64,000 nucleotides of DNA, from positions 11,225-75,224 of the forward strand of contig CAIYES010000095.1 of NCBI GenBank assembly GCA_903925275.1. The letters run 5' to 3'. The notes below the pieces were generated by a model. The model was not told where the DNA came from, ran no database searches, and saw only the letters and a program-made list of their open reading frames with translations. The position numbers were made by a program, and so were the translations under genes. Source of the stretch: an uncultured Bacteroidales bacterium (GTDB taxonomy: Bacteria > Bacteroidota > Bacteroidia > Bacteroidales > FEN-979). Each line of letters begins with the position of its first letter. The first letter of the stretch is position 1. This document shows positions 6,239 through 63,139 of the stretch, piece by piece.

Positions 6239-6395
6239 TGACAAGTGACAAATGACAAGTGACAAATGACAAGTGACGAATGACATTTGGATGTCGAATT
6301 TATAAAGTAGTAATCAGGGTATCAAAACTATAATCGAAAATAGAAAAAGATAAGTTCACAGGTCACTTGTCATTTGTCATTCGTCATTTTTTTTA
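6239..6395. repeat. 7-bp tandem array (TGACAAG/TGACAAA, 7 units, 6239-6287) with an inverted partial copy (6362-6386) followed by a T8 run; possibly a long-loop terminator
   Basis: Read directly from the sequence. The reverse complement of 6362-6386 is TGACGAATGACAAATGACAAGTGAC, which can pair with the first array. TGA occurs in all three plus-strand frames. Confidence 0.9.
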
Positions 6396-15044: not shown

Positions 15045-18000
15045 ATGACCAGTGACCACCTACTTATTATAAAGCTTGATGACTTTATTAGGAAATATTA
15101 TAAAAACCGTCTGATCAGAGGAATAGTAGGATTTTTTACTGTTATTCCGGCATTTTATATATTTCTGGTAATACTGGAATATTTCTTCCATTTTAATCAA
15201 TTTTTGAGAACAGTTTTGTTTTTTTCATTTTCGGGATTTTCAATCTTTTTGTTTGTTAGAGTGGTATTGGTGCCACTTTTGCAGCTATATAAAATCGGGA
15301 AAATTATTACACATGACAAAGCTGCGCAAATAGTTGGACAACATTTTTCAGATATTCAGGACAAACTCCTAAATACATTGCAGTTGATAAAGCAAAAGGG
15401 AATGGTTGACCCTTACTCTGATTTGCTTACAGCTAGTATTGAACAGAAAACAAAAAGCAATGAAAGTTTTCAGATTCAGTGTCGCTATCGATTTCAGAAA
15501 AAACTTACGGTATCTGCGCTTTGCAATACTTCCAATTTCACTTATTCTGTTTATTATAATAATAGCGCCAAATATTATTTCTGAACCTACCAGTCGTATT
15601 GTTCATTTTAACCATGTTTTTGTTGTACCCCCGCCATTTAAAATCGAATTTCTGAATAAAAGCTGGACAACCCTGCAGCAAGAGGATTTTGAACTGAAAA
15701 TTAAAGTAACAGGAGAAGAAATTCCATCTGAAATTTATGTAAAAACAAAGGATTTTGCTGTAAAAATGTGCAAGGGTCAAAGATTTGCATTTTCACATCT
15801 GTTCAAATCACTTCAGAAAAATGTATATTTTAAGTTAGTGGCAGGCGACTATCAGTCGGAGGAATATGAAATTATCGTAAACCCCAAGCCCATCATTCTT
15901 AATTTTGACGTTTTTTTAAAATATCCAATATATATTAATAAGGTTGATGAAAAAGTTGAAAATCTTGGAGATTTTACTATTCCGGAAGGTACAGTGATGA
16001 CATGGAATTTTCATACCAAGGATGTTAGCTCTCTTAGGTTAAGGTTTGATAGTGTTGACATTTTATTATCAAACGCTATCAATCAAAAATTTTCCTATTC
16101 CCAAAAGATCTCAAAATCTTTAAATTATTGTATTTCACCAATAAATGTAAACGTATCTATTCCGGATTCTCTTACTTATCGGATAAGTGTTATACCTGAT
16201 GGATATCCGTCAGTGTTTATTAATGAATCTGCAGACTCAACAATTATTTCAAGCATTTTCTTTAAAGGTACGATTAAGGATGATTACGGTTTTTCCAAAC
16301 TAACTTTTAATTATGGACTTTTTTCAAAGGAAGATTCAATAGTTTCGCCATACAAGGCTGAAAGTGTTATGATTGATAATTCGATAAATAATCAGGTGTT
16401 TTACTTTTCTGCTGATTTAACTAAACTTATGGTTATAAATGGTCAGCATATGAATTATTACTTTGAAGTCTGGGATAATGATGGAATACATGGACCAAAA
16501 TCGGCAAGATCTGAAATGAAAACTATTTCAACACCAACGATTGATGAAATTTCCATACTTACATCAGAGAATGAACAATCAATTAACAAGTTTCTTGAAA
16601 AGAGCATTTCTACTTCGAAAGGGATGACGAAAACAATGGAAAATTTGAGTAAACAGTTAATCGACAAAAACACTTTATCCTGGCAAGAAAAAATGAAAAT
16701 CGAGGATTTGATAAAAGCAAATCGGGATATAGAAGATAAAGTGCAGCAAATCAGAAAGAAAAATGAAAATAATATACTAAACGAAGAGAAATTCCTGAAA
16801 ACGAGTGAACGCATCATAGAAAAACAAAAGCAATTAACTGACTTAATGGAGCAGTTGCTTTCAGAAGAGATGAAAAAAATGGTAAAAGAGATGAAAGATC
16901 TTTTGAATCAGATTGATAAAACAAAACTGGGCAACATGCTGGAGAAGATGAAGTTATTAAATGAAGATCTTGAAAATCAATTAGACAGAAACCTGGCTCT
17001 GATGAAGCAAATCGAATTCGAAAGAATATTAGAGGAATTGGTTAAAGATATTCGAAGTAATGCTGATAACCTGGAATCGCTTGCAAAGGAAACAGATAAT
17101 CAACGTAAGGATAAGGAGGTACTACTACAAAATCAGGAGTCAATTAAAAAGATAGCAGACACCCTGGCAAAGAAAGCAACCTCACTGGAAAAACAAGGAA
17201 AGGAACTGGAAACACCCACTGATATAGGAAATAATAAAAATCTGGAGGATAGTATTGGAAGGAATCTCGCTGAAAGTAAGCAAAAATTAGGAGAAGACAG
17301 AAAAAAGGAGGCTGCGGAGGCACAAAGGAAAGCAGCAAAGCAAATGAAGGAAATGGCGCAGCAAATGGAAGATTCCCAGGAGGAAAGTGAGGATGATCAG
17401 TTAGGAGAGGACGCTTCAAATATTAGAATGATAGTAGAAAATTTGTTGCGCCTTTCATTTGAGCAGGAAGATCTGATTGCAAATACACGTGTCGTCACAA
17501 ACACCGATCCAAAGTACAATGAGATTATTTTGAAACAAAAGGAACTGAGTGAGAAATTGGTGGCTGTAGAAGATTCATTATATGCAATTGCCAAACGGCA
17601 AATTATGATTAAACCAATTGTTTCTAAAGAAATATCAGCAGTAAATCAAAACATCGAATTATCACTTGAGGCTATGAAGATCCATAATATAAATATGGCG
17701 GTAGCAAAACAACAATACGCTATGACCTCCTTAAATAATCTGGCCATCTTGCTTAATGAGTCACTTGAACAGATGAATGAGCAAAAATCGATGAATATGA
17801 AAACTAAAGGAGGAAAGAAATCTTGTCAAAAGCCTACAACAAAAGGGGGAAAAATGTCGGCCAAAGACATGAAGGATTTACAGCAAAAGATTGGAAAACA
17901 ACTTGAAAAGTTAAAGTCCGGGATAGAAGAAGCGAAGAAACAAGGGCTGGGAAAAATGCAGGATAAAAGTGGTATGAATAAAGAAATTGCTAAGCTGGCA

Positions 18001-18399
18001 GCTCAACAGGAAGCCTTGCGTAATCAATTACAAAGTTATCAGGATCAAATGAGTACAAAAAATGCCCAGAATCAGAGTAATTTGAACGAGGTTTCTAAAG
18101 AGATGGAACAAATGGAGAGAGATTTAATAAATAAGAATATTACCCGGGAAACATTTCTACGGCAACAAAATATTGTAACCCGTTTATTAGAGTCTGAAAA
18201 CGCCGAGCAAACAAGGGATCAGGAAGAAAAAAGAGAGGCAACAGAAGCAAAAAATCAAAAAATTGGTAACCCTGGACAAAATTTTCAGTATAACAAGATG
18301 AAGAAAACGAGTTTAGACAACATTCAATTGGTTTTACCGGTCTTAAATTCGTTTTATAAACGTAAAGTTAACAGTTATAGTGTTAAAATTGGACAATGA
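15045..18399 (+). pseudogene. Large membrane-anchored coiled-coil protein (DUF4175-like by recollection), split over two frames by an apparent 1-nt frameshift near 15447-15456
   Basis: ORFs 15045-15584 and 15406-18399 overlap in different frames. Continuity is restored at the A-runs in cagaaaacaaaaagc (IEQKTK then AMKVFRFSVAIDF). The C-terminal half is K/E/Q-rich coiled coil. Confidence 0.55.
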
Positions 18400-18400
18400 T

Positions 18401-18886
18401 ATGAAACACGATGTCAGAGATCTGGTAATAACCGGACATAAAGAAATTACCAAGATTGAAAAATTTGTCGAGGAAATTTGTGACTTTTATAATGTAAACA
18501 ATGACTATTTTGGGAATATTTTATTGGCTACAACTGAAGCAGCTGAAATTTTATTTTCCCTCAATGAATCTTTTGAAATCGATAAGCTGGGAATTAGTTT
18601 CGAACGAACCAGAAAAGGCATGGTTTTCAAAATTAAACTTGTTAATGATTCAAAATTGGAAGTTATTGAAGAAGATTTGCTTGAAAGAGAAATCAGACGT
18701 CATAAATTGTCAAAAGAGATATTTATTATAAAAGCATTAACAGATGAAATTACCATATCTGTTAATGCGAAAAGTATTATTCTGGTGTTTTATATTTCAA
18801 GCATGAATTATGAAAAATCCCTCTATAGAATAAATCAATTGAAAGAATACTGGATAAAAATGGAAAATGTAATTCAAAAAAAGTGA
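18401..18886 (+). CDS. Hypothetical protein; weak resemblance to SpoIIAB-like anti-sigma ATPase-fold proteins
   Basis: The ATG at 18401 lies just after the upstream stop. The gene is tightly packed before ybeY, and no diagnostic motif was recognized. Confidence 0.4.
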   Translation: MKHDVRDLVITGHKEITKIEKFVEEICDFYNVNNDYFGNILLATTEAAEILFSLNESFEIDKLGISFERTRKGMVFKIKLVNDSKLEVIEEDLLEREIRRHKLSKEIFIIKALTDEITISVNAKSIILVFYISSMNYEKSLYRINQLKEYWIKMENVIQKK

Positions 18887-19311
18887 GTGAAAGCATAAAT
18901 TTTTTCAAAGATTCCACGAAGTTCAAACTAGAAAAACGAAGAGAACTCAGGAAGTGGATCAACAATGTTGTGAATTCAGAGAAATGTAATATTGAATGGA
19001 TCAACTTTGTTTTTTGCGATGATAGAATTCTGGCAGATATGAATATTAAATATTTGAATCATAATACTCTGACAGATATTCTAACTTTTTCATTTAGTAA
19101 TAGTGGAGAAAATATTAGTGGAGAGATATACATAAGTGTTCAAAGAGTTAGGGAAAACGCGTCAAATTATAAAGTCACGTTTGAAAAGGAACTGCACAGA
19201 GTGATGATTCATGGAATTCTTCATTTATTAGGATATAAAGATTCTACAAAAACCGAAAAAGATATCATGAGACAGAAGGAAAATTTTTATTTGTCTTATC
19301 TATTTCAATAG
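18883..19311 (+). CDS. ybeY: rRNA maturation endoribonuclease YbeY
   Basis: Zinc-binding motif HRVMIHGILHLLGYKD (HxxxHxxxxxH) in a ~140-aa protein. Confidence 0.9.
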   Translation: MSESINFFKDSTKFKLEKRRELRKWINNVVNSEKCNIEWINFVFCDDRILADMNIKYLNHNTLTDILTFSFSNSGENISGEIYISVQRVRENASNYKVTFEKELHRVMIHGILHLLGYKDSTKTEKDIMRQKENFYLSYLFQ

Positions 19312-19477
19312 ATCGTGCAAAATATCCTTCTTACAATAGTTTTATAATGCCCAGGGTTTTTTAATGTTTTAGCGATATCATTTATTTTATTTTTAGGCTA
19401 TTATAGAATTTAGAGTTCTTATGGAATTATTTATAATACCGTTTTAGATTTGCCAGGATATCAAAGTACAAAGTCAT

Positions 19478-19493
19478 TGTTTCACGTGAAACA
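19478..19493. promoter_or_regulatory. Perfect 16-bp palindrome TGTTTCACGTGAAACA in the mnmG leader; related copy at 21374-21389
   Basis: Read directly from the sequence. It ends 11 nt before the mnmG ATG. A TAGATTTG -7-like box lies at 19445-19452. Confidence 0.3.
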
Positions 19494-19504
19494 TTAAAAA
19501 TCTG

Positions 19505-21373
19505 ATGAGGAAATATGACATTATTGTGGTAGGAGCAGGTCATGCAGGTTGTGAAGCGGCAGCAGCTGCGGCAAATCTGGGATCTAAGGTTTTGTTGATA
19601 ACCATGAATATGTCGAACATGGCTCAAATGTCTTGTAACCCATCAATGGGAGGAATAGCAAAAGGGCAGATAGTGCGTGAAATTGATGCTTTGGGAGGAT
19701 ATTCCGGAATTGTAACTGACCGAACAATGATTCAGTTCAGAATGCTAAATCGTTCGAAGGGACCGGCAATGTGGAGCCCACGGGCTCAAAATGACAGGGT
19801 TTTATTTTCTGTCGAATGGCGCAACATGTTGGAGTGTACCGAGGGGGTAGATTTTTGGCAAGATACAGCAACAGAGATTTTGGTAAAGAAGGATAAAGTT
19901 GTTGGCATAAAAACAGGATTAGGTTTAGTTTTTAATTGCAACGCCATAATTCTGGCAAATGGCACATTTTTAAATGGAATTATATATATTGGTGAGAAGC
20001 AGTTTTCTGGAGGTAGAATCGGAGAACGGGCAGTTAAAAATTTGACAGAACAGTTAATAGGTTTAGGATTTGTTTCAACTAGAATGAAAACCGGAACACC
20101 TGTCAGGGTTGATGGAAGATCACTTGATTTTAAGAAAATGACCGAACAACCCGGTGATGAATACCCGGGGAAGTTTTCCTATACGAATACTCCGAGTTTA
20201 AAAAAACAAAGAAGTTGTTTTATTACATACACAAGTAACGAGGTTCATGATATTTTGAGGACTGGTTTTGACAAATCTCCAATGTTTTCGGGAAGGATAA
20301 TCGGGAAAGGACCTAGATATTGTCCTTCCATCGAGGATAAGATTGACAGGTTTGCTACAAAAGAACGTCATCAGCTTTTTATTGAACCTGAAGGTTGGAA
20401 TACTGTTGAATATTATGTGAACGGGTTTTCCTCTTCTCTTCCGGAAGAAATACAATTCAAAGCGCTTAGAAAAGTTAAAGGATTTGAAAAAGCCAAATTT
20501 TTCAGACCTGGGTATGCTATAGAATATGATTATTTTCCCCCTAATCAATTACATTTTACGCTAGAAACAAAAATTATCGAAGGATTGTATTTTGCAGGGC
20601 AAATAAATGGAACAACTGGATATGAAGAGGCTGCTGCACAGGGTCTGATGGCAGGAATCAATGCTCATAACAAATTAAGGAAGGAACCTGGTTTTGTATT
20701 AAAACGATCTGATGCGTACATAGGGGTTTTAATTGACGATTTGGTCACAAAAGGAACAGAAGAACCATATAGAATGTTTACATCAAGAGCTGAATACAGG
20801 GTACTTCTAAGGCAAGACAATGCTGACCAGCGGTTAACCAAGTTCTCCTGCAATCTTGGTTTGGCTTCAGCAGAGAGGTTGAAAAATGTATTAGAAAAGT
20901 ATAAGAAGATCGATAAGTTGATAAAATTCATTCAGGAGGAAAGTATCATGCCATTGCAGATTAATACCTTGCTAGCTGAAAAAATGACAGATCCGATAAA
21001 CCAGAAATATAAAATGTCGTCAATTTTACTCCGGCCCCAGATATTTTTAAAGGATATTATTGGACATATTGATTCTGTCAGAGATTTTTTTATTGATAAT
21101 GATTTACTCCAAGATGAGATAATTGAAGAAGCGGAGATTAAAATTAAGTACGAGAGCTATATTATAAAAGAACAGGCATTAGCGGATAAAATGTCACACC
21201 TTGAATATCTTTCTTTGGCAGGTGTCACGGACTATTCAAAAATTACCTCTTTGTCGTATGAAGCCCGGGAAAAACTATCAAAAGTTAAACCAGAAACAAT
21301 CGGACAAGCATCCAGGATCAGCGGTGTTTCGCCAGCGGACATATCCGTGCTTATTGTCTACATTGGTCGATGA
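19505..21373 (+). CDS. mnmG: tRNA uridine 5-carboxymethylaminomethyl modification enzyme MnmG (GidA)
   Basis: FAD-binding motif DIIVVGAGHAGCEAA and full-length 622-aa MnmG pattern. Confidence 0.95.
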   Translation: MRKYDIIVVGAGHAGCEAAAAAANLGSKVLLITMNMSNMAQMSCNPSMGGIAKGQIVREIDALGGYSGIVTDRTMIQFRMLNRSKGPAMWSPRAQNDRVLFSVEWRNMLECTEGVDFWQDTATEILVKKDKVVGIKTGLGLVFNCNAIILANGTFLNGIIYIGEKQFSGGRIGERAVKNLTEQLIGLGFVSTRMKTGTPVRVDGRSLDFKKMTEQPGDEYPGKFSYTNTPSLKKQRSCFITYTSNEVHDILRTGFDKSPMFSGRIIGKGPRYCPSIEDKIDRFATKERHQLFIEPEGWNTVEYYVNGFSSSLPEEIQFKALRKVKGFEKAKFFRPGYAIEYDYFPPNQLHFTLETKIIEGLYFAGQINGTTGYEEAAAQGLMAGINAHNKLRKEPGFVLKRSDAYIGVLIDDLVTKGTEEPYRMFTSRAEYRVLLRQDNADQRLTKFSCNLGLASAERLKNVLEKYKKIDKLIKFIQEESIMPLQINTLLAEKMTDPINQKYKMSSILLRPQIFLKDIIGHIDSVRDFFIDNDLLQDEIIEEAEIKIKYESYIIKEQALADKMSHLEYLSLAGVTDYSKITSLSYEAREKLSKVKPETIGQASRISGVSPADISVLIVYIGR

Positions 21374-36635: not shown

Positions 36636-37631
36636 TCAACCTCCGGCCAATCCATTGGCGTATAAATAGGTTGCAATCTGTACAGCATTGGTGGCTGCAC
36701 CTTTCCGGAGATTATCTGCAACAATGAAGAGATTCAGGGAGTTGGGCTGTGATTCGTCACGTCGAATCCTGCCGACGAATACCTCGTCTTTGCCCTTGGC
36801 CCCGATCGGCATCGGGTAAATGTTATTTTTAATATCATCCTGAACGATTATTCCGGGTGCAGCGCCAAGCAGGGCAAAAATGTCGCGGATTTCATAATCC
36901 CGGCAAAATTCCAGGTTAATGGCTTCGGAATGACCGCCCAGAACAGGAACCCTGACAATCGTGGCCGTAATCCTGATTGAATAATCATCAAGAATTTTTT
37001 GGGTTTCGTTTACCAGTTTCATCTCTTCTGAGGTATAACCATTTTCCTGAAAAACACCTCCATGAGGAAACAGGTTCAGATCGATCGGGTATGGATATGC
37101 CATTTCTCCCATAATACCCTTGCGTTCATTTTCGAGCTGTTGTATGGCTTTTGCTCCCGTTCCGGTTACCGACTGATAAGTTGACGCAACGATGCGTTTG
37201 ATTCCATATTTCGCATGAAGTGGCGCCATAACGAGTACCAATTGAATTGTTGAGCAATTGGGATTGGCGATGATCTTGTGATCTTTAGTCAGAATTGAAG
37301 CGTTTATTTCAGGGACAATTAAAGGAATTGACTGATCCATACGCCAGGCGGAGGAATTATCTATAACCGTTATTCCTGCAGCAGCATAGCGGGGAGCCCA
37401 TTCCCTTGATGCAGCAGCGCCGGCAGAAAAGATTGCAATGTCGGGCTTTGCTCCAATTGCCTGTTCGTGGGTGTGAATAAAATAACTGTTGTGGTTGAAA
37501 GTAAGTGGAAGCCCTGCTGATTTCATTGAAGCGACAGGGATGAATAATTCGGGATAAAGCTTATGTTCATCAAGAACTTTAAGAATCTCGCGTCCCACCA
37601 AACCTGTAACACCGACAATTGCCAGCTTCAT
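36636..37631 (-). CDS. asd: Aspartate-semialdehyde dehydrogenase
   Basis: MKLAIVGVTGLVGRE Rossmann start and active-site block IANPNCSTI. The ORF-track extension to 38015 merely reads through tandem repeats. Confidence 0.9.
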   Translation of the reverse strand: MKLAIVGVTGLVGREILKVLDEHKLYPELFIPVASMKSAGLPLTFNHNSYFIHTHEQAIGAKPDIAIFSAGAAASREWAPRYAAAGITVIDNSSAWRMDQSIPLIVPEINASILTKDHKIIANPNCSTIQLVLVMAPLHAKYGIKRIVASTYQSVTGTGAKAIQQLENERKGIMGEMAYPYPIDLNLFPHGGVFQENGYTSEEMKLVNETQKILDDYSIRITATIVRVPVLGGHSEAINLEFCRDYEIRDIFALLGAAPGIIVQDDIKNNIYPMPIGAKGKDEVFVGRIRRDESQPNSLNLFIVADNLRKGAATNAVQIATYLYANGLAGG

Positions 37632-37661
37632 GTTGTATTTTTTGGCAAAGGTACAGGAAAA

Positions 37662-37782
37662 ATGGTGAAATGGTGAAATGGTGAAATGGTGAAATGGTGA
37701 GATGGTGAGATGGTGAGATGGTGAAATGGTGAAATGGTGAGATGGTGAAATGGTGAAATGGTGAGATGGTGAAATGGTGAAA
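37662..37782. repeat. 8-bp tandem array, 15 units (ATGGTGAA / ATGGTGAG), in the asd / LTD-protein divergent intergenic region
   Basis: Counted directly. Unit order is a a a a g g g a a g a a g a a. The array ends 30 nt from the asd ATG. Confidence 0.95.
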
Positions 37783-37871
37783 AAAATCCGGAATGGGAAG
37801 ATTGGCGGGGAGTTTTTATCAACACAGGTATTACTTTTCGGTAATTTCCGGATTAAGCAGAAAAACCGCAT

Positions 37872-40508
37872 ATGAAAACTTTTTATTCCAGCATTGTCAA
37901 TATTGTCTGCATTGCCTGCATTGTCTGCATTTCCTGCATTGTCTGCATTTCCAGCATTTCCCAGGCCCAGGTGACGGATGATTTTTCGGATGGAAATTTT
38001 TCCAGGAACCCGCAATGGCTAGGGGATACCATGCAGTTTGAGGTCAATACGGCCGGCCAGCTTCATTTAAAAGGTCAAAGCAGCGATACATCCCTATTAA
38101 TGACAAGAAGTGAATCCAGCTCAACCACTGAATGGCGTTTTTGGATAAAATTATCGTTCAACACCTCCTCAAATAATTATGCACGAATCTATCTCGCGTC
38201 AGACACTATAAATGTATTTTCCGCGATGAATGGCTATTTTCTTCAGACGGGTGGTGGGGATGACAGCATCTTTATCATAAAACAGTCGGGCATGGTTCAG
38301 GAAAAGATATACCGTGTTCAATTTTATAAAACGTTTCATTCAACAAATACGTTTCGGATGAAAATCACACGTGATGAAGCAGGGGGCTGGGAGGTAATGA
38401 TTGATACAACCGGGGGATTTAATTATTATCAGGACGGTAGGTTTTCAGACAATTCACTCTTTCCGGCACGATGGATTGGCGTTTGTTGCCGCTATACATC
38501 CAGTAATGCAACGAAATTTTATTTTGATGATTTTTATATAGGGCCGATCATTTATGATACCATTGCACCTTCAGTTATCTCTCAGGAATTTCAGGCAGAG
38601 AAAGTTATTAGGGTTGCTTTCTCAGAGACGATAGAAAGAAGAAACGCAGAGACTCCTGAGAATTATCAACTCGGCCCGGATGTCGGATCTCCTGATTCTG
38701 TCATTATGGATGTGCAGGAGCCTGCCGTAGCTTTGTTTCTTCATGAACCAATGAAAGAAGGCATTTATGGTTCATTGCATATTCAGGGGGTTACTGATTT
38801 GGCTGGAAACCTGATGAAAGATACCGTGGTTCCGGTATGCTGGTATCGGCCGAAAGTTTTTGACATCCTTATACATGAGATCATGGCAGACCCGGATCCT
38901 CCTGTTGAATTGCCGGATGGTGAATTTGTAGAGTTGTTTAACCGCACAGATTTCCCAATAAATCTAAAGGGTTGGAGCTTCAGTTATGGAAGCTATATCA
39001 AGATATTCCCCTCAACGGTCATTTCACCAAAGGGATATTTGCTAATTGTAAAAGATTCATCCTATTTAAGTTACGCAGTATGTGCGGTTTTATTCACATC
39101 TTCCACTTCCTTATCAAATGAAGGAACTGCCCTGATACTGAAAGATCAGTGGAATCATGTTATTCACACTGTTTCATACACCCCGGAATGGTACAAAGGT
39201 TTATTTAAAGGAGAAGGCGGATGGTCGCTGGAGATGATAGATCCGGGAAATCCATGTGGTTGTGGAGAAAACTGGGGCGCATCGCAGGCAAAATCCGGAG
39301 GAACACCCGGGAGTCCAAATTCTATTGGCAAATCCAACCCTGATCTGAAAAGTCCGGTTCCCATGAGAGCCGTGATATCTGATTCGTCATCCTTGGAAGT
39401 TTACTTTTCAGAAGCAATGGACAGCACTTCATTGCTTTCACCGGCAGGCTGGATTATAGGTTCCCCGGATGGGGCGATCCACCCCGTTAGGGCTGAACCG
39501 GTTTCTCCCGGGTTTATTTCAACAAAACTATTGTTCAGCAAAGCTTTTGAACCAGGGATATCTTACACGCTCAATGTTTCGGGTGATTTTAAAGATTGTA
39601 CGGGTAACTATTGCGACACTACCCGAACAGTCAGGTTTGCGATTCCGGATTCCGTGACCCTTCATGACATCGTCATCAACGAAATTTTATCCAATCCAGC
39701 CAGTGGAGGAGCAAGATTTGTTGAGTTAATCAACCGTTCAGAAAAAATTATTGATCTGCAAACCCTGGTATTGGCGAACCGTGACACTGTAACTGGATTT
39801 CTTCCGGGTTCAACACCGCTTTTCCCTTCCGGATATTTATTGTTCCCCGGAGATTATATCGCGCTGACTTCAAGCTCTGATGAAATCCGGGACCGGTATC
39901 ATTCACCTTTCCCGGAAGCCATCGTTTCGATGCAGGGATTTCCAGTGTTCGGAGACGACACAGGAACTGTGATCCTAGCCAGAAAAGATAATTTAATGGT
40001 CATTGACAGGATTCACTATGATCCGGATATGCATTATCCATTGCTGGCAACTTCAGAAGGAGTGTCGTTGGAGCGGACCAATCCGGACATGCCCTCCGAA
40101 AGCAAAGACAATTGGCATTCGTGTGCTGAAACGGCAGGATTTGCTACTCCTGGTTTCATAAATTCGCACTTTGTCATTCATGAAACAACGGATAGGGAAA
40201 TTGTTATCGAACCGTGTGTTTTTTCACCCGACAATGATGGGCATGATGATTTATTGTCCATCATCGTCCGTGAAAATGACCCAGACTGTACGGTCAGCAT
40301 TGAAATTTATGATTCGAAAGGACGAATAATCAACCAATTAGTCAATAACGTGTTAACTGGCAGCGAGGGAATTTTCATCTGGGATGGGATGACCTCTAAC
40401 AAGAACAAGGCACCGCTTGGCTTTTATGTTTTCCTGATTGAAATAACAAGGCCGGATGGTACGGTGAAGCACTATAAAGGGACTGCCGTGCTGGGGGGAA
40501 GACTCTGA
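37872..40508 (+). CDS. Secreted protein with two lamin-tail domains (LTD) and a C-terminal beta-sandwich carrying an FSPDNDGHDD motif
   Basis: LTD signatures HEIMADPDPPVELPDGEFVELFN...LKGW and NEILSNPASGGARFVELIN. The signal peptide ends SQAQ. The C-terminal FSPDNDG motif resembles T9SS type-B/FlgD-Ig-like domains. Confidence 0.7.
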   Translation: MKTFYSSIVNIVCIACIVCISCIVCISSISQAQVTDDFSDGNFSRNPQWLGDTMQFEVNTAGQLHLKGQSSDTSLLMTRSESSSTTEWRFWIKLSFNTSSNNYARIYLASDTINVFSAMNGYFLQTGGGDDSIFIIKQSGMVQEKIYRVQFYKTFHSTNTFRMKITRDEAGGWEVMIDTTGGFNYYQDGRFSDNSLFPARWIGVCCRYTSSNATKFYFDDFYIGPIIYDTIAPSVISQEFQAEKVIRVAFSETIERRNAETPENYQLGPDVGSPDSVIMDVQEPAVALFLHEPMKEGIYGSLHIQGVTDLAGNLMKDTVVPVCWYRPKVFDILIHEIMADPDPPVELPDGEFVELFNRTDFPINLKGWSFSYGSYIKIFPSTVISPKGYLLIVKDSSYLSYAVCAVLFTSSTSLSNEGTALILKDQWNHVIHTVSYTPEWYKGLFKGEGGWSLEMIDPGNPCGCGENWGASQAKSGGTPGSPNSIGKSNPDLKSPVPMRAVISDSSSLEVYFSEAMDSTSLLSPAGWIIGSPDGAIHPVRAEPVSPGFISTKLLFSKAFEPGISYTLNVSGDFKDCTGNYCDTTRTVRFAIPDSVTLHDIVINEILSNPASGGARFVELINRSEKIIDLQTLVLANRDTVTGFLPGSTPLFPSGYLLFPGDYIALTSSSDEIRDRYHSPFPEAIVSMQGFPVFGDDTGTVILARKDNLMVIDRIHYDPDMHYPLLATSEGVSLERTNPDMPSESKDNWHSCAETAGFATPGFINSHFVIHETTDREIVIEPCVFSPDNDGHDDLLSIIVRENDPDCTVSIEIYDSKGRIINQLVNNVLTGSEGIFIWDGMTSNKNKAPLGFYVFLIEITRPDGTVKHYKGTAVLGGRL
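37891..37962. repeat. 9-bp tandem array, about 8 units (GCATTGTCT / GCATTGCCT / GCATTTCCT), inside the signal-peptide coding region of the LTD protein
   Basis: Counted directly. It translates in frame as IVNIVCIACIVCISCIVCISSIS. ATTGCCTGC is the reverse complement of the GCAGGCAAT unit at 62958-63083. Confidence 0.9.
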
Positions 40509-42963: not shown

Positions 42964-42996
42964 TGAAATGGTGAAATAGTGAAATGGTGAAATGGT
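42962..42996. repeat. Short 8-bp array (about 4 units of TGGTGAAA-type) between the ABC ATPase stop and the rnr start
   Basis: Sequence aatgaaatggtgaaatagtgaaatggtgaaatgg, the same unit family as 37662-37782. Confidence 0.8.
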
Positions 42997-45699: not shown

Positions 45700-48600
45700 A
45701 TGAGAACAATTTTCAGGCTTTTTGTAGTGCTTGGATTTATTTTTGCTATTCCAGGTCTTTCTGTTTTCAGTCAGGTTAGCATCAAAACCGATGGCAGTCC
45801 ATGCGACCCTTCAGCCATGCTGGATGTGAATGCAAAAGACCGGGGGTTACTCCTCCCGCGTATGTCGGTTGCTGCACGCAACCTGATTCTATCTCCCGCA
45901 ACCGGCCTGCTAATCTACAATACGACTTCGAACCAATTCAATTATTACAATGGCAGTCACTGGTTCCAGTTGGAAACAACCTTTATCATTTTAAAAACCG
46001 CAGGAAGCCCAAGCACAGGCAGCAACGGTGTTGCCATTGGCACTTCACTGGGAACACAGGCGGAAAGTACGGCGATGCTCGACATCAATGATCCGGCCAG
46101 GGGTATGCTGATCCCGAGAATTTCAACCTCAGCCCGCGACCTTATCCCATCGCCTGCCAATGGTTTGATCATTTACAACACATCTTCAAATCTCCTCAAT
46201 TATTACAACAATACCCGTTGGGTTACCGTGTGTGCCAGTTCAACGGGGATAACGGGTGCCAGCGGAAGCCAGGCCTCCGTCGGGATAGCTATCAAATCAG
46301 ACAATTCAAACGCGGATCCATCCGCAATACTGGATGTATCGGCTACCGACAAGGGGGTGCTGATCCCACGACTTACGAATGCCCAGCGTGATGCTATTCT
46401 TCCTGTTACCGGACTGGTCATCTATAATACCATAACCAACAATATTGAATTTTACAATGGCTCAGGCTGGTACCAGTTTGTCACAAACCTGCTCTCATCC
46501 CCATTGGCCGGTATACATGTGCCAACCGGAACAGAGATCACCTGGAACTGGAACAGCGTTGCCGGTGCCATCGGTTATAAATGGAATACGGTCGATGATT
46601 ACACAACGGCGACCGACTTGGCTGCCGTCACCACGAAGACCGAAACAGGTCTCATCCCCATCACAGCCTATTCGAGATATGTATGGGCCTACAACAGTTG
46701 CGGGGTATCGGCAGCGACCACGCTGACACAGTCGACCACAGCCTGGGCGTGCGGCTCTTCATTCACCATTGATCATGTAGCCGGCGATGTGGCACCTGTC
46801 ACAAAAACCGTTACCTACGGTACAGTTCCGAATATTGCGGGTAGTCCTGAAAAATGCTGGATTACCAGAAACCTGGGTGCCGACCAGCAGCCAACGGCCG
46901 TTGATGACGCATCCGAAGCATCGGCAGGCTGGTACTGGCAGTTTAACCGGAAACAGGGTAACAAGGTTGATCAGGATGGCTTCACCCGCAAGCCCGCTGC
47001 CACCTGGACCACGAATATTCTTGAAAGCACTTTCTGGGAGGCCGCCAACGACCCCTGCACCCATGCTCTTGGCAGCGGGTGGCGCATTCCTACTTATACG
47101 GAATGGAACTCAGTAGTAGCGCTCTTTCCAAACCATCTTAATCCATGGATATCTGATTTGAAGCTGCATGCAGCCGGTCGTCTCATCGTAGCCGATGGTT
47201 CACTATTCCAACGAGGTCTCTTCGGTGAATACTGGTGCAGCAATGGTGACGGTCCTTTAATCCCCCCCCCAGGTGTAAATACGAGCATGACCCTCTTCTT
47301 CATCGCTGGAATTATCGAAGCGGGTTTTGGGGTTAACTTTAATGCAACCGGGGAGTCGATGCGCTGCCTCAGAGATGAAGCAAGTTTCACCACTACCCCC
47401 ACCCTCACCACAACGGCTGCCGGCAATATTACTACGACAACGGCAACCGCTGGCGGCAATGTCCTCAGCGAAGGAGGGGTAGCAGGAATTGTAAAGGGTG
47501 TATGCTGGAGCACTTCACCTTTGCCCACCATTGCCGACAACCACACGACCGACGGCAGCGGAACCGGTGTGTTTACAAGCAATTTCAGCGGCCTCACGGC
47601 GAATACCCTTTATTATGCAAGGGCTTATGCTACCAATGGTTCCGGAACCGCTTACGGGAATGAGGTAAGTTTCAGGACCTTCTTCACCTGCGGTACTTCC
47701 ATCACAGTTAACCATGTTGCGGGCGATGTGGCGCCGGTTAATAAAACCGTTACCTACGGCACCGTTGCAAACATTCCCGGCGAACCAGCAAAATGCTGGA
47801 TCACCCGTAATCTGGGCGCCGACCAACAGGCTGCCGTTGATGACGATAACACCTCTGCCGCTGCAGGCTGGTACTGGCAGTTTAACCGCAAACAGGGGTA
47901 CCAGGTTGATATGAACGGGGCCAGAACACCCAATACCAGCTGGATAACCTCAATAAATGAAAACAGTGACTGGGAGGCTGCCAAGGATCCCTGTACCCTT
48001 GAACTTGGCGCTGGCTGGCGTATCCCGGCCATGTCGGAACTGGAGAACCTGGATGCAGGCGGAGCCTGGACCAATGAGAGTTTTCCTTGGAATTCCGGGT
48101 TAAAACTGCATGAAGCCGGGATCATACATGAAAATGATATGTTATTCAACCGCGGAAAGACAGGCTTTTACTGGAGCAATACACAGAACGGCGCTTCAAA
48201 GGGATGGAACCTGTTCTCCGGCGTTGGAACATGTTCCATTGAATCCAACACCAAAGTCAGTGGTATGTCGCTGCGCTGCCTCAACGATGGCGGTGCTACC
48301 ACAACCACACCTGCTGTTACAACGTTGGTTGCCAGCAATATTGCTGCTACTGCAACAACAGGCGGGGGCTATGTTTACAGTGACGGCGGAACTGCTGTAA
48401 CTTCCCGTGGAATTTGCTGGAGTAACGTACCAAATCCTACTTTGGCAAACAGCCATTCAACCAACGGCAGTGGTTCGGGTTTGTTTACTGGCAGCCTCGC
48501 CGGTCTCACACCGAATACCCTGTATTATGTATGTGCATATGCTACCAATGGTAACGGCACTGCCTATGGAAATGAAATAACTGTGACAACCACTACCAGC

Positions 48601-51600
48601 TCAACCTGCGGTACTTCCATTACCATCAATCATATAGCAGGAACCGTAGCGCCGGTGACAAAAACAGTTACTTACGGAACTGTTACAAACATACCCGGTG
48701 AACCGGCAAAATGCTGGATTACCAGCAACCTCGGGGCGGACCACCAGGCTTTGGCAATAGATGATGCCACTGAAGCCGCGGCAGGCTGGTACTGGCAGTT
48801 TAACCGCAAACAAGGGTACAAGCATGATGGAACAACCAGAACACCCCATACCGATTGGGATGAATGGATTTTTGAAAACTTTGACTGGCAGTTTGCCAAC
48901 GATCCCTGTGCCCATGAGATAGGCAGTGACTGGCGTATTCCAACGTATACCGAATGGAATAATGTTGCTGCTGGTGGAAACTGGGTAGACTGGAATGGCC
49001 CGTGGAATTCCGGTTTAAAACTCCATGCAGCAGGTTACCTGTATACTTTCAATGGTGACGGGCTGCACAACCGGGGCGAACTTGAAGATTACTGGAGCAG
49101 TTCACAGGACCCCATCTACCAAGGATGGCACCTGTTTTACCCGGGCAGTATCCAGGGCATGCCCGACGGTGGGGTGTATCATGACGGTAAAAGTTTCGGA
49201 TATCCGCTTCGTTGCATCAAAGATTCGCCCAATCCGCTCATTCCAACAGTAACAACAGCCATTGTGACGGACATCACTTCAAACACCGCCTCAGGTGGAG
49301 GAAACGTCGCTTCCGATGGAGGGGCGCTGGTAACCGCAAAAGGGGTGTGCTGGAGCACCTCGTCAAATCCTACTACTGCCAGCAGTCATACGACAGATGC
49401 CAGCCTCACAGGAGTGTTTTCAAGCAGTCTCACCGGCCTTATACAGAATACGCTATATTATGTTAGGGCATATGCAACCAACAGTGCGGGCACGGCTTAC
49501 GGAACCGGGGTGACATTTACCACCCTGAATTCTGTTCCTCCAACGGTTCTTACAACTGCCGTGACCTCCATCGCTCAAACCACCGCCACCGGCGGAGGAA
49601 ATGTCACCGCCGATGGCGGAGCACCGGTTACAGATCGTGGTGTATGCTGGAGCGCCGCATCAAATCCAACCATCCCCGGGAACAGCCATACCAATGATGG
49701 CAGCGGTACCGGAGTGTTCACCAGCAGTCTCACAGGCCTCACAGCGAATACCCTGTACCACACAAGGGCCTATGCGACCAACAATGCAGGAACGGCTTAT
49801 GGACTGGATTTGACCTTTACCACCCTGCCAAATCCGGTTATTCCAACAGTAACCACAACAGCAGCAACAGTTATAGCTCAAACCACCGCGACCAGCGGAG
49901 GAAATGTCACCGCCAATGGCGGAGCACCGGTTACAAATCGTGGCGTATGCTGGAGCACCGCATCAAATCCAACCATCCCCGGGAACAGTCATACCAACGA
50001 TGGCGGTGGCACCGGAGTGTTCATCAGCAGTCTCACAGGTCTCGCTGCGAATACCCTCTATCATGTCAGAGCGTATTCAACAAACAGCGCGGGTACTGCT
50101 TATGGGACAGACCTGACGTTCACCACATTAAACGGGGTTCTTCCATCGGTAACTACAACATCGGTTACAGAAATCACCAAGACGACTGCCACCGGAGGAG
50201 GGAATGTACTTTCTGACGGCGAAGTTACGGTCACGGCCCGTGGCATATGCTGGAGTACATCATCCCCACCTTTGGTCACGAATTATCATACGACCGATGG
50301 CGGCGGAACCGGGGCATTCACAAGCAGCCTCACCGGCCTGGCCCAGAACACCCGGTATTATGTAAGGGCTTATGCAACAAACAGTATCGGTACCGCTTAC
50401 GGGAATGTAGTAGATTTTTTAACACTCAATCCCTGTCCCGGAATTGAAACCATCACCATAAACCATGTTTCAGGTAATGTATCTCCGGAAAATAAAACCG
50501 TTACCTATGGAACTGTCATGGGTATCCCCGGAGAACCTTCAAAATGCTGGATTACCAGTAACCTGGGCGCCGACCACCAGGCAACCGCTGTTAATGATGC
50601 CACAGAACCTTCGGCAGGATGGTACTGGCAGTTCAACCGGAAGCAGGGATACAAAAACGCCGGATCAACCGTACCGGCATGGACGACAACCTATGTCAAT
50701 GAAAATCTGAACTGGGAGGCTGCCAATGACCCGTGTTTCGTTGAACTTGGTGCCGGCTGGCGTATTCCTACCTCCAGTGAATTGGGTAATGTAAGCGGAA
50801 GCTGGACCAACTGGAACGGTCCATGGAATTCAGGTTTAAAGCTCCATGCTGCCGGGTTCCTGTTCAGCAATGGTTCACTGCAAGCCCGTGGTTCCTATGG
50901 CAATTACTGGAGCAGTGAGCAGTTCGGCAATACCAATGGCTGGTACCTGAATTTTACCAGCACAACCGTCAACCCGGGCATCGTTTCAAAAGCTTACGGC
51001 ATGTCGATCCGCTGCCTGATGGATGCCACGGCCACGGTAACAACAACCGTGGTTACCAATATTGCCTCAACTACCGCCATCTCAGGCGGTAATGTTGTGA
51101 ACGAAGGCTTATCTGCCGTTACTGTCAGGGGTGTTTGCTGGAGCACTACAACATCTCCCACCATCTACGGTAATAATACTGCTGATGGTAGCGGAACCGG
51201 TGTTTTTGTGAGCAACCTGGCCGGTCTTACGCCGAATACATTGTATTATTTAAGGGCCTATGCGACGAACAGTGCCGGAACGGCATATGGGAATGAAGTC
51301 AGTTTCACAACTTCCGCTGTATTTCTCTGCGGATCCTCCCTAACCATCAACCATCTGATATCAGGAGGTGTTGCTCCTGTTGATAAATCAGTAACCTATG
51401 GCACCGTGACTAATTTACCCGGCGAACCTTCAAAATGCTGGATCACAAGTAACCTGGGGGCAAGTCAGCAATCGACCGCCGTGGATGACAATACCGAGGC
51501 TTCTGCCGGCTGGTACTGGCAATTCAACCGGATGCAGGGATACATGAATGATGGTTCAACCTATCCGTCGTGGACGATAACCAGCATCAGTGAAAATGCC

Positions 51601-51930
51601 AACTGGGAACCCGCCAACGACCCGTGTGTCATTGAACTTGGCGCAGGTTGGAGGATACCTACATTTACCGAATGGGACAATGTGAATACATGGGGCGGCT
51701 GGGCAAACTGGGACGATGCCTGGGCCTCTGAGCTCAAACTGCATGCGGCCGGGAACCTTGCTTATTGGTACGGTGGGATATTCTACAACCGGGGTTCACA
51801 GGGCTTATACTGGAGCAGCACGCAGAATGACGATATTACCGGCTATTACCTGTTCCTCTTTTCGGGATATACCACCATGAGTACAATTGAAAAGGCATCC
51901 GGCTGCCCGGTGCGCTGCCTTAAAGAGTAA
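45700..51930 (+). CDS. Giant modular cell-surface protein: 3 N-terminal ~55-aa repeats, 5 Fib_succ_major-like domains and about 10 Fn3-like modules
   Basis: Signal peptide. Repeats (A/S)xLD(V/I)...G(L/M/V)L(L/I)PR...YN(T)...YYNG..W occur 3 times. Modules H(V/I)AG.VAPV.KTVTYGTV...KCWIT.NLGA...GWRIPT..EW...YWSS...RCL occur 5 times. Modules GGNV..DGG..VT.RGVCWS...NTLYY.RAYATN.AGTAYG occur about 10 times. Confidence 0.85.
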   Translation: MRTIFRLFVVLGFIFAIPGLSVFSQVSIKTDGSPCDPSAMLDVNAKDRGLLLPRMSVAARNLILSPATGLLIYNTTSNQFNYYNGSHWFQLETTFIILKTAGSPSTGSNGVAIGTSLGTQAESTAMLDINDPARGMLIPRISTSARDLIPSPANGLIIYNTSSNLLNYYNNTRWVTVCASSTGITGASGSQASVGIAIKSDNSNADPSAILDVSATDKGVLIPRLTNAQRDAILPVTGLVIYNTITNNIEFYNGSGWYQFVTNLLSSPLAGIHVPTGTEITWNWNSVAGAIGYKWNTVDDYTTATDLAAVTTKTETGLIPITAYSRYVWAYNSCGVSAATTLTQSTTAWACGSSFTIDHVAGDVAPVTKTVTYGTVPNIAGSPEKCWITRNLGADQQPTAVDDASEASAGWYWQFNRKQGNKVDQDGFTRKPAATWTTNILESTFWEAANDPCTHALGSGWRIPTYTEWNSVVALFPNHLNPWISDLKLHAAGRLIVADGSLFQRGLFGEYWCSNGDGPLIPPPGVNTSMTLFFIAGIIEAGFGVNFNATGESMRCLRDEASFTTTPTLTTTAAGNITTTTATAGGNVLSEGGVAGIVKGVCWSTSPLPTIADNHTTDGSGTGVFTSNFSGLTANTLYYARAYATNGSGTAYGNEVSFRTFFTCGTSITVNHVAGDVAPVNKTVTYGTVANIPGEPAKCWITRNLGADQQAAVDDDNTSAAAGWYWQFNRKQGYQVDMNGARTPNTSWITSINENSDWEAAKDPCTLELGAGWRIPAMSELENLDAGGAWTNESFPWNSGLKLHEAGIIHENDMLFNRGKTGFYWSNTQNGASKGWNLFSGVGTCSIESNTKVSGMSLRCLNDGGATTTTPAVTTLVASNIAATATTGGGYVYSDGGTAVTSRGICWSNVPNPTLANSHSTNGSGSGLFTGSLAGLTPNTLYYVCAYATNGNGTAYGNEITVTTTTSSTCGTSITINHIAGTVAPVTKTVTYGTVTNIPGEPAKCWITSNLGADHQALAIDDATEAAAGWYWQFNRKQGYKHDGTTRTPHTDWDEWIFENFDWQFANDPCAHEIGSDWRIPTYTEWNNVAAGGNWVDWNGPWNSGLKLHAAGYLYTFNGDGLHNRGELEDYWSSSQDPIYQGWHLFYPGSIQGMPDGGVYHDGKSFGYPLRCIKDSPNPLIPTVTTAIVTDITSNTASGGGNVASDGGALVTAKGVCWSTSSNPTTASSHTTDASLTGVFSSSLTGLIQNTLYYVRAYATNSAGTAYGTGVTFTTLNSVPPTVLTTAVTSIAQTTATGGGNVTADGGAPVTDRGVCWSAASNPTIPGNSHTNDGSGTGVFTSSLTGLTANTLYHTRAYATNNAGTAYGLDLTFTTLPNPVIPTVTTTAATVIAQTTATSGGNVTANGGAPVTNRGVCWSTASNPTIPGNSHTNDGGGTGVFISSLTGLAANTLYHVRAYSTNSAGTAYGTDLTFTTLNGVLPSVTTTSVTEITKTTATGGGNVLSDGEVTVTARGICWSTSSPPLVTNYHTTDGGGTGAFTSSLTGLAQNTRYYVRAYATNSIGTAYGNVVDFLTLNPCPGIETITINHVSGNVSPENKTVTYGTVMGIPGEPSKCWITSNLGADHQATAVNDATEPSAGWYWQFNRKQGYKNAGSTVPAWTTTYVNENLNWEAANDPCFVELGAGWRIPTSSELGNVSGSWTNWNGPWNSGLKLHAAGFLFSNGSLQARGSYGNYWSSEQFGNTNGWYLNFTSTTVNPGIVSKAYGMSIRCLMDATATVTTTVVTNIASTTAISGGNVVNEGLSAVTVRGVCWSTTTSPTIYGNNTADGSGTGVFVSNLAGLTPNTLYYLRAYATNSAGTAYGNEVSFTTSAVFLCGSSLTINHLISGGVAPVDKSVTYGTVTNLPGEPSKCWITSNLGASQQSTAVDDNTEASAGWYWQFNRMQGYMNDGSTYPSWTITSISENANWEPANDPCVIELGAGWRIPTFTEWDNVNTWGGWANWDDAWASELKLHAAGNLAYWYGGIFYNRGSQGLYWSSTQNDDITGYYLFLFSGYTTMSTIEKASGCPVRCLKE

Positions 51931-62245: not shown

Positions 62246-62958
62246 ACATCCGGTGTTTAATAATCGATGATGAACCGCTTGCACAGCGTGTCATTGAAAA
62301 GTATACTGAGAATATTCCGTTTCTCGAGATCGTCGGGAAATGCAGCAATGCGGTTGAAGCCATTGAAGTGCTGCATAACCGGGAGGTTGATCTTTTATTC
62401 CTGGATATCAACATGCCAAGGCTTAATGGCATGGACTTTCTTAAAACCCTGAAAAACCCGCCATTGGTCATCATTACCACGGCCTATGCTGAATATGCCA
62501 TCCAGGGGTATGAGCTTGATGTAGTTGATTATCTGATGAAACCGTTTGCTTTTGACCGGTTTTACAAGGCCATCCAGAAAGTCGAAGAGATGATAAAAGG
62601 GAGGGAAATACCCCAAACCGAAGCCAAAGAGGCAACCAGACAGGAAGAGACCTTCATTTTTGTCAAATCAAGTAAAAAAACCTATAAGGTCAACCTGGAT
62701 GAAATCCTTTACATTGAAGCTTTGGGAGATTATGTAAAGATATACACCACAGAGAAAATGATTATCAGCTACCAGTCGCTGAAGAATATTGAATCACTCC
62801 TGCCGGCCTCCTCTTTCCCGCGGATTCATAAATCATTTATCATAGCCTTGTCGCGTATTGATCTGATCGAGGGGAATCACGTAAAGATCAAAGACCGGCA
62901 GATTCCGATCGGCACTAATTTTAAATCTGAATTTGAGAGGCTTATTAAATCTATTTAA
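62242..62958 (+). CDS. LytTR-family response regulator
   Basis: Receiver domain (IIDDEP, DLLFLDINMP, KPF) plus LytTR domain (ILYIEALGDYVKIYT, RIHKSF). It overlaps the kinase stop by 4 nt. Confidence 0.9.
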   Translation: MNIRCLIIDDEPLAQRVIEKYTENIPFLEIVGKCSNAVEAIEVLHNREVDLLFLDINMPRLNGMDFLKTLKNPPLVIITTAYAEYAIQGYELDVVDYLMKPFAFDRFYKAIQKVEEMIKGREIPQTEAKEATRQEETFIFVKSSKKTYKVNLDEILYIEALGDYVKIYTTEKMIISYQSLKNIESLLPASSFPRIHKSFIIALSRIDLIEGNHVKIKDRQIPIGTNFKSEFERLIKSI

Positions 62959-63083
62959 TGCAGGCCATGCAAACAATGCAGGCAATGCAGGCAATGCAAA
63001 CAATGCAGGCAATGCAAACAATGCAGGCAATGCAGGCAATGCAAACAATGCAGGCAATGCAAACAATGCAGGCAATGCAGGCA
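62958..63083. repeat. 9-bp tandem array, 14 units (ATGCAGGCA / ATGCAAACA), beginning at the response-regulator stop codon (TAATG)
   Basis: Counted directly. Higher-order 45-nt periodicity (units A G G A G). It is open on the plus strand as MQAMQTMQAMQA...I, with the stop at 63087-63089. Confidence 0.95.
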
Positions 63084-63111
63084 ATTTAAATTATGCAGGA
63101 ATGTATTAATT

Positions 63112-63139
63112 ATTGCCTATTGCCTACTGCCTACTGCCT
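63112..63139. repeat. 7-bp tandem array, 4 units (ATTGCCT / ACTGCCT), partly complementary to the preceding 9-mer array
   Basis: Read directly. The reverse complement AGGCAAT is contained in the GCAGGCAAT unit. Confidence 0.85.

Follow-up and report, generated by a model that had tools for sequence, protein, structure and literature searches.

What does an array of fifteen near-identical octamers do between two divergent genes: does its unit number control either of them, or is it one of many unstable repeats of its host that came to lie between two promoters? We addressed this question in a 64-kb window (the whole stretch of 64,000 nucleotides analysed) from an uncultured Bacteroidales bacterium. 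The array and its two neighbours are:

36636–37631, minus strand: asd, aspartate-semialdehyde dehydrogenase, 331 aa (PF01118, Semialdhyde_dh, and PF02774, Semialdhyde_dhC)
37662–37781, plus strand: octamer array, 15 units of ATGGTGA(A/G), with no C on the plus strand and no G on the minus strand
37872–40508, plus strand: gene for an 878-aa LTD (lamin-tail-domain) / Big_5 / CHU_C protein (Pfam; CHU_C is a type IX secretion signal)

TRF placed the array at 37660–37782 with a period of 8, 15.4 copies and 94% matches, and a two-unit pattern search gave 14 overlapping matches at 37662–37781, where shuffles lead one to expect 0.01. The units read ATGGTGAA or ATGGTGAG, their eighth base running, in order, A A A A G G G A A G A A G A A. 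At 120 bp the array takes up half of the 240-bp intergenic region (37632–37871), leaving 30 nt to the asd ATG on one side and 90 nt to the LTD-side ORF on the other. Such near-identical, head-to-tail copies of a short unit, far above chance, make it a long simple sequence repeat (SSR). The true start of asd is the ATG at 37631–37629, and an identical protein is called on other contigs.

The unit sequence has marked effects on the reading frames. In frame 1 the plus strand translates as MVKW*..MVRW*, and a TGA every 8 nt closes all three plus frames. The minus strand carries no stops, and the asd frame consequently runs on into a 459-aa ORF, a spurious extension of 128 codons beyond the 331-aa Asd. 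The preliminary description had reported the fifteen units filling half of the region, their distance from the asd ATG, the stacked mini-ORFs with stops in all plus frames and the open minus strand, and all of this was borne out by TRF and pattern search, coordinates and translation. The ATG of the last unit also opens a 33-codon ORF whose TGA (37873–37875) overlaps the LTD start codon (ATGA); this overlap is not preserved in the closest relative (L111). In orthologous arrays the start-stop design is absent, ATAGCGAA units lacking the ATG and ATGGCRAA units the TGA. Conservation of small ORFs in orthologous leaders, as leader-peptide or uORF control would have it, was not found. The array RNA has little or no structure, the minus-strand transcript having an MFE of 0 and the plus-strand transcript one of -11 kcal/mol, and Rfam covariance models gave no match at E <= 1 over 37000–38500. 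We conclude that the unit sequence gives rise to the mini-ORFs and to the open minus strand incidentally.

Around the array, an alignment of ten orthologous asd/LTD spacers (A1) delimited the following features:

37646–37653, minus strand: predicted asd -7 box TACCTTTG (TAnnTTTG), with the ATG 14 nt downstream and the array 8 nt away
37654–37661, no strand assigned: conserved (c)aGGAAAA, the junction that joins the -7 box to the array (A1)
37782–37812, no strand assigned: non-conserved filler aaaaatccggaatgggaagattggcggggag 3' of the array, common only to the closest relative, L111
37813–37871, plus strand: conserved LTD promoter/5'UTR block, from invariant columns of A1 in orthologues with ~60–90% LTD identity
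37813–37824, plus strand: TTTTTATCAACA motif of the LTD block, near-invariant or invariant across orthologues
37832–37839, plus strand: -7-like TACTTTTC of the LTD block, one mismatch to the -7 consensus
37851–37858, plus strand: invariant GATTAAGC of the LTD block (A1)

At the predicted asd -7 box, GCAAAG.TA was invariant in 10 of 10 aligned regions (A1), only the nn positions varying. TAnnTTTG is reportedly the -7 promoter consensus of Bacteroidota, a description said to go back to Bayley et al. in 2000. In the window it was enriched ~3.6-fold in intergenic DNA, with sense copies typically 17–40 nt before start codons, as one would expect of a promoter motif. All orthologues keep both the asd -7 box and the LTD block, whatever the state of the array (0–4 units), and each promoter is predicted to lie between the array and its own gene. 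Since both -7 boxes stand outside the array and are conserved in array-less relatives, unit changes cannot alter core-promoter spacing, and since the array is periodic, the promoter-proximal units are the same at any count. In a phase-variable SSR of the spacer type the repeat lies between core promoter elements; here the -7 boxes are gene-proximal and the array is 120 bp long, and an array of that length cannot lie within a core promoter. The suggestion of the preliminary description that promoter elements would change their spacing with every 8 bp gained or lost is thus not upheld. It had further envisaged an LTD leader with up to 15 start-stop units, which needs a plus-strand start to the left of the array. 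No exact TAnnTTTG was found that would place the array in either leader, the nearest being ~2 kb or more away on the plus strand and 1.7 kb on the minus strand, and this idea is not supported either. The mini-ORFs are probably transcribed into neither mRNA. A -7-like TATTTTTTG with one mismatch does occur at 37636–37644, on the plus strand and left of the array, and its T-run is more simply explained by the A-rich sequence ahead of the asd start codon, of which it is the complement. A scan of 37300–38100 for sigma-70 promoters and intrinsic terminators, with a model unsuited to Bacteroidota, returned none.

Two minor points concern the same region. TTTTTATCAACA and GATTAAGC were kept even at only ~60% protein identity and are candidates for a regulator site or a 5'UTR element. 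The array was also considered as a binding site of the neighbouring Crp/Fnr regulator and rejected as such, being a direct repeat and not a TGTGA-N6-TCACA palindrome.

The orthologous spacers tell how the array arose. LTD orthologues at ~60–90% identity keep the divergent order with asd, and the array site lies directly after the conserved GGAAAA(A). Array or single-unit ancestor begins right after the (c)aGGAAAA junction in every lineage of A1. At this site the relatives carry:

L111 (90% identity): four ATGGTGAA-type units, the first being ACGGTGAA
L112 (70%): four ATAGCGAA-type units
L113 (62%, Bacteroidales MAG GCA_030681475.1): four ATGGCRAA units
L115 and L130 (61%): one ATAGCGAA
L220: mixed units
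L152: degenerate units
L132, L153, L172 and L173: no array

Copy number therefore differs among close relatives, with 15–16 units in the window's species and 4 in L111, and ranges from 0 to 4 in more distant orthologues. That the units drift in concert while their count runs from 0 to 16 is the signature of in-place slippage expansion from a single ancestral octamer. On this comparison the site is old and the array young, and the array is not a conserved control element.

The array also varies within the species. In a second sample (ERZ27313313), a contig with the same Asd and LTD proteins carries 16 units versus the 15 of the window. The extra unit lies inside the first, homogeneous A-type run, and over 10.9 kb the 8-bp indel is the only difference between the two, with 0 substitutions. 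A third contig, also with five A-type units, stops within the array, and two further contigs break within it. The preliminary description had asked whether unit number is fixed across populations; it is not, although this length polymorphism is based on assembled contigs from three samples only. Scanning metagenomes with the conserved flank yielded no further same-species alleles, as 7 of 106 matches were orthologous and all of these came from other species. Other arrays of the window's species are likewise length-polymorphic: the heptamer array upstream of mreB has two units fewer in two contigs, and one assembly (L224) has a longer 9-mer array behind the LytTR gene.

Taken together, these results make it reasonably likely that the asd/LTD array is a hypermutable long SSR that acts as a variable-length spacer between back-to-back promoters, outside both predicted mRNAs. 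It would have grown by lineage-specific expansion, through replication slippage, from one ATAGCGAA-like octamer just upstream of the asd -7 box. Its growth would have lengthened the gap between the divergent core promoters and changed neither of them, and the array would be one of many genome-wide 7–9-bp arrays that cluster at gene boundaries in this Bacteroidales lineage. Both slippage as the mechanism and the lack of a dedicated switch function are what we infer from the comparisons above.

The same unit also occurs in other places. An exact three-unit search across 185,579 species genomes returned at least 107 stretches with at least 126 ATGGTGA(A/G) arrays of three or more units; the window's own genome was not among the matches listed. 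The unit is dispersed, with at least 34 stretches in the freshwater Bacteroidales MAG Kiruna_bin-10044, at least 10 in the Bacteroidales MAG Co_metawrap_1939, at least 6 in AM-2014_bin-2482 and at least 10 from Hymenobacter species. Flavobacteriales, Chitinophagaceae, Saprospiraceae and a few non-Bacteroidota were also among the matches listed, and the stretches in that set held ~240 further arrays of many other 7- and 8-mers. Within the window TRF found 8 arrays. Only two loci carry the ATGGTGA(A/G) unit, the second being:

42964–42996, plus strand: ATGGTGA(A/G) array of ~4 units, from the stop codon of an ABC ATPase gene to 20 nt before the ATG of RNase R

This second array is identical in the other same-species contig.

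By a crude ORF caller, 78 arrays of the unit among the matches listed were intergenic versus 12 'genic', in DNA that is 86% coding. The octamer, whose length is not a multiple of 3, is thus kept to non-coding DNA, and the 9-mers of the window do occur in genes. The 78 intergenic arrays comprised 49 in co-directional, 19 in convergent and 10 in divergent contexts (same caller, among the matches listed). Sense arrays started about -15 to +20 nt around the upstream stop codon, and 18 of them supply the stop (again among the matches listed). When each array was oriented by its G-rich strand, a polar rule emerged: among the matches listed, and with the same crude caller, the octamer lay nearer to the ORF on its 5' side in 53 cases versus 24 (p = 0.001), and the other units did so in 86 versus 32 (p = 7e-7). 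Median distances to the 5'-side and 3'-side ORF were 4 vs 38 nt for the octamer and 12 vs 82 nt for the other units, among the same matches. The rule holds irrespective of the orientation of the 5'-side ORF; the asd/LTD array, with 30 vs 90 nt, conforms to it, as do all eight arrays of the window. At other loci the unit is found for the most part at the 3' ends of genes and is therefore no special device of the asd/LTD control region. Polar placement, and the use of one unit at dozens of loci, go beyond what random slippage alone accounts for and hint at selection or a sequence-specific process.

Several simple origins for the dispersed arrays were tried and discarded. Array flanks share no conserved sequence beyond the phase of the repeat, which argues against a mobile element, and stop codons are spread over -15 to +20 nt, with no single site at which an insertion could have been targeted to them. 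In 94 of 116 arrays among the matches listed the first full unit was preceded by AA, because arrays start in the phase AAATGGTG. The base preceding this AA was mixed (G 42, T 28 and A 24, with CAA only twice, among the matches listed) and TAA was not specially enriched, so insertion targeted to TAA was rejected. Singleton units, considered as seeds, numbered 7 in the window with the arrays set aside, versus 3.7 expected, which is within the shuffle range and not significant.

Compound arrays were common among the matches listed, with the octamer followed directly by ATCTGAT or AATCGTA heptamers. In Hymenobacter (L026, L030, L083, L084 and L104) a TTTGATGTTC-like motif recurs after the octamer arrays, which often form inverted pairs around ~70–100 bp, as if they were the arms of a small palindromic element.

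How does this repeat compare with those already known? Short tandemly repeated repetitive (STRR) heptamers are said to have been described in cyanobacteria by Mazel et al. in 1990. They form lineage-specific, dispersed families of intergenic tandem heptamers, like the present arrays, and differ in phylum and units. Among the papers that could be searched, none contained the ATGGTGAA repeat; ATGGTGA(A/G) would thus be a new member of the long SSRs, a class already known. Long SSRs with 5–11-nt units are an established class attributed to slippage (Mrazek et al. 2007, as summarised in PMC4679880). According to that summary the class shares the following features with the present arrays: perfect head-to-tail copies of 7–8 nt, a strong non-coding bias, patchy abundance by genome, length polymorphism attributed to polymerase slippage, and tolerance of multiples of 3 in genes, for which the 9-mer of the LTD signal peptide is a parallel (PMC4679880). 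In contrast to the present case, the richest genomes of the survey, as summarised there, do not include Bacteroidota.

A second family, the GGGNATC and GGGGA(C/T)T heptamers of Xanthomonas and Nostoc, comes in 2–26 copies, dispersed and with a non-coding bias (Rehm et al. 2015, PMC4692102). On the coding strand these heptamers lie at stop codons or after them, on the non-coding strand no more than 50 bp upstream of start codons, and no function was established for them (PMC4692102). Like them, ATGGTGA(A/G) arrays are closest to the 5'-side ORF as defined by the G-rich strand, in any orientation, are under-represented between divergent ORFs, and vary in length and sequence at orthologous sites (PMC4692102). 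Unlike them, the present unit is an octamer in a Bacteroidales host, the asd/LTD array is in the disfavoured divergent context, and no four-unit preference can be claimed for the octamer. Furthermore, ATGGTGA(A/G) has GG runs only, 6 nt apart, so that a G-quadruplex is unlikely. With the present arrays the polar rule reaches a third phylum and holds for a non-G4 unit, a finding that speaks against G-quadruplexes as the cause of the rule.

A third family, the TAACTGA heptamers, occurs in Beggiatoaceae, Cyanobacteria and five Bacteroidetes (MacGregor 2015, PMC4679880). It shares with the present arrays the intergenic location, stops in three frames in one orientation and the habit of abutting start or stop codons and, in Bacteroidetes, long and compound arrays within which contigs often break (PMC4679880). 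The units differ, and TAACTGA mostly points to a downstream start whereas ATGGTGAA arrays mostly begin at an upstream stop (PMC4679880).

Against this background the alternatives to a hypermutable spacer can be weighed. The array might be a contingency locus or rheostat in which unit number tunes or switches transcription of LTD and/or asd, acting through the distance or helical phase of the promoters relative to upstream DNA or through coupling of the divergent promoters. We consider this unlikely. The LTD product, a T9SS cargo and thus a surface or secreted protein, is a plausible target for variable expression; unit number varies between identical flanks and goes from 4 to 16 between close lineages. 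The array of the window's species is the largest at that site among the lineages seen, and for the largest array beside a surface-protein gene adaptive tuning fits as well as drift. The two -7 boxes lie ~49 bp apart with one unit (L115) and 178–186 bp apart in the window's species, so that the promoters would compete in the former and 120 extra bp would uncouple them. The (TAAA)n repeat of nadA is a known phase-variable precedent. A further one is hmw1A of Haemophilus influenzae, whose (ATCTTTC)n is part of the transcribed 5'UTR and, by pairing with a G-rich arm, makes an RNase III hairpin (PMC12721329). This is the nearest true phase-variable analogue of the asd/LTD array, having likewise a 7–8-bp unit upstream of a surface-protein gene, ~10–20 copies and unit-number polymorphism (PMC12721329). 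Unlike hmw1A, the asd/LTD array has the predicted LTD promoter downstream of it, no partner arm, little or no structure in its RNA, and the housekeeping gene asd as its other neighbour; neither transcription within a leader nor an RNase III hairpin finds support at this locus. The core promoter motifs outside the array, unaffected by unit number, speak against a rheostat, as do relatives that manage without the array. Same-unit arrays are mostly 3' of unrelated genes, the divergent context is the rarest (10 of 78 among the matches listed), and phase variation was judged unlikely for the analogous heptamers (PMC4692102).

Alternatively, the array could belong to a dispersed family of cis elements, putatively protein-bound or RNA-acting repeats at gene boundaries, which would here shield asd and LTD from one another or from transcriptional read-through. 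In one version the G-free, C-rich and unstructured (UUCACCAU)n transcript would be a Rho-loading or S1-binding site, and the minus-strand RNA, with its MFE of 0 and no G, suits this role; in another the duplex array would bind a nucleoid protein. That one unit comes back at dozens of loci across several genomes, placed in a polar way whatever the orientation of the neighbours, is consistent with such an element, as are inverted array pairs that form long hairpins (for example 6239–6389) and similar proposals for the TAACTGA repeats (PMC4679880). On the other hand, the repeat has no known binding factor, orthologous arrays differ freely in unit sequence (ATAGCGAA, ATGGCRAA, ATGGTGAA) and the array is absent in some relatives; the lack of an Rfam match over the region scanned and of singleton enrichment in the window point the same way. 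A functional cis element of such a family seems unlikely as well.

A further reading, which we hold to be quite improbable, is that a sequence-specific process at ORF boundaries across Bacteroidota makes or maintains ATGGTGAA-type arrays and the other G-skewed 7–8-mers of these genomes, which would then be more than passive products of slippage, and that the unusually long asd/LTD copy is a genuine copy-number rheostat for a type-IX-secreted surface protein. Candidates for the process would be a protein that binds the repeat, an element acting as RNA, or templated addition with ...AA ends as primers. Were sequence-specific maintenance true, it would supply a mechanism for the polar rule, so far unexplained, that is shared with the Xanthomonas and Nostoc repeats.

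Finally, the general view is that Bacteroidota do not depend on Shine-Dalgarno pairing, which counts against a barrier at the RNA level. Such a barrier, in which an LTD start left of the array would give a ~220-nt leader whose 14 mini-ORFs and 33-codon uORF throttle or couple translation, has in its favour that the mini-ORFs are real, that the uORF TGA overlaps the LTD ATG, that GGUGA stands 9 nt upstream of each AUG and that the one-mismatch motif at 37636–37644 is on the plus strand, but it is very unlikely given the missing exact plus-strand -7 box upstream, the conserved promoter-like block downstream of the array, and the loss of the mini-ORF design in orthologous arrays and of the ATGA overlap in L111.

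With the hypermutable spacer as the favoured reading, the locus is a caution against taking every promoter-region repeat for a phase-variation switch. The most interesting residue of the analysis is the polar rule itself. The lineage, an uncultured freshwater one of the Bacteroidales, is packed with polymorphic 7–9-bp arrays, which break assemblies, create spurious ORF extensions such as the 128 codons added to asd, and even build the core of a signal peptide. The last of these lies just inside the LTD gene:

37891–37958, plus strand: in-frame 9-bp repeat TGCATTGYC (TRF), encoding the C-I-V/A/S hydrophobic core of the LTD signal peptide

The core reads IVC IAC IVC ISC IVC ISS. The copies of the 9-bp tandem repeat vary by orthologue, with ~6 in the LTD gene of the window and 2–3 in L115, and the LTD orthologue of 90% identity is 3 aa shorter overall. 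The reverse complement of the same unit makes up a non-coding array at 62957–63103. There the 9-mers (AATGCAGGC/AATGCAAAC, with a 45-bp superunit) begin at the stop codon of a LytTR response regulator gene, and a TGCCTAC heptamer array at 63114–63139 adjoins the stop of the convergent LysE gene. One contig (L223) departs after ~5 of the 9-mer units into a different gene, by rearrangement or misassembly.

Between purH and mreB, a TGACAAR heptamer array (6239–6285) has an inverted partner at 6362–6389. The pair folds into a hairpin of -50.9 kcal/mol (z = -5.3) followed by a T-run and resembles a terminator built from two arrays; this ~145-bp inverted-array element is missing from one contig with an identical MreB. 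Two segments of the window stand out by composition. A 2076-aa ORF at 45700–51930, with weak matches to fn3 and Lcl_C, lies in DNA with a GC content of 51–53% versus ~41% in the rest of the window, which might point to foreign DNA or to a repetitive surface protein of distinct composition. At 16000–20000 GC falls to 33–34% with strong positive GC and AT skew, over a DUF4175 gene (15406–18399) and small downstream ORFs.
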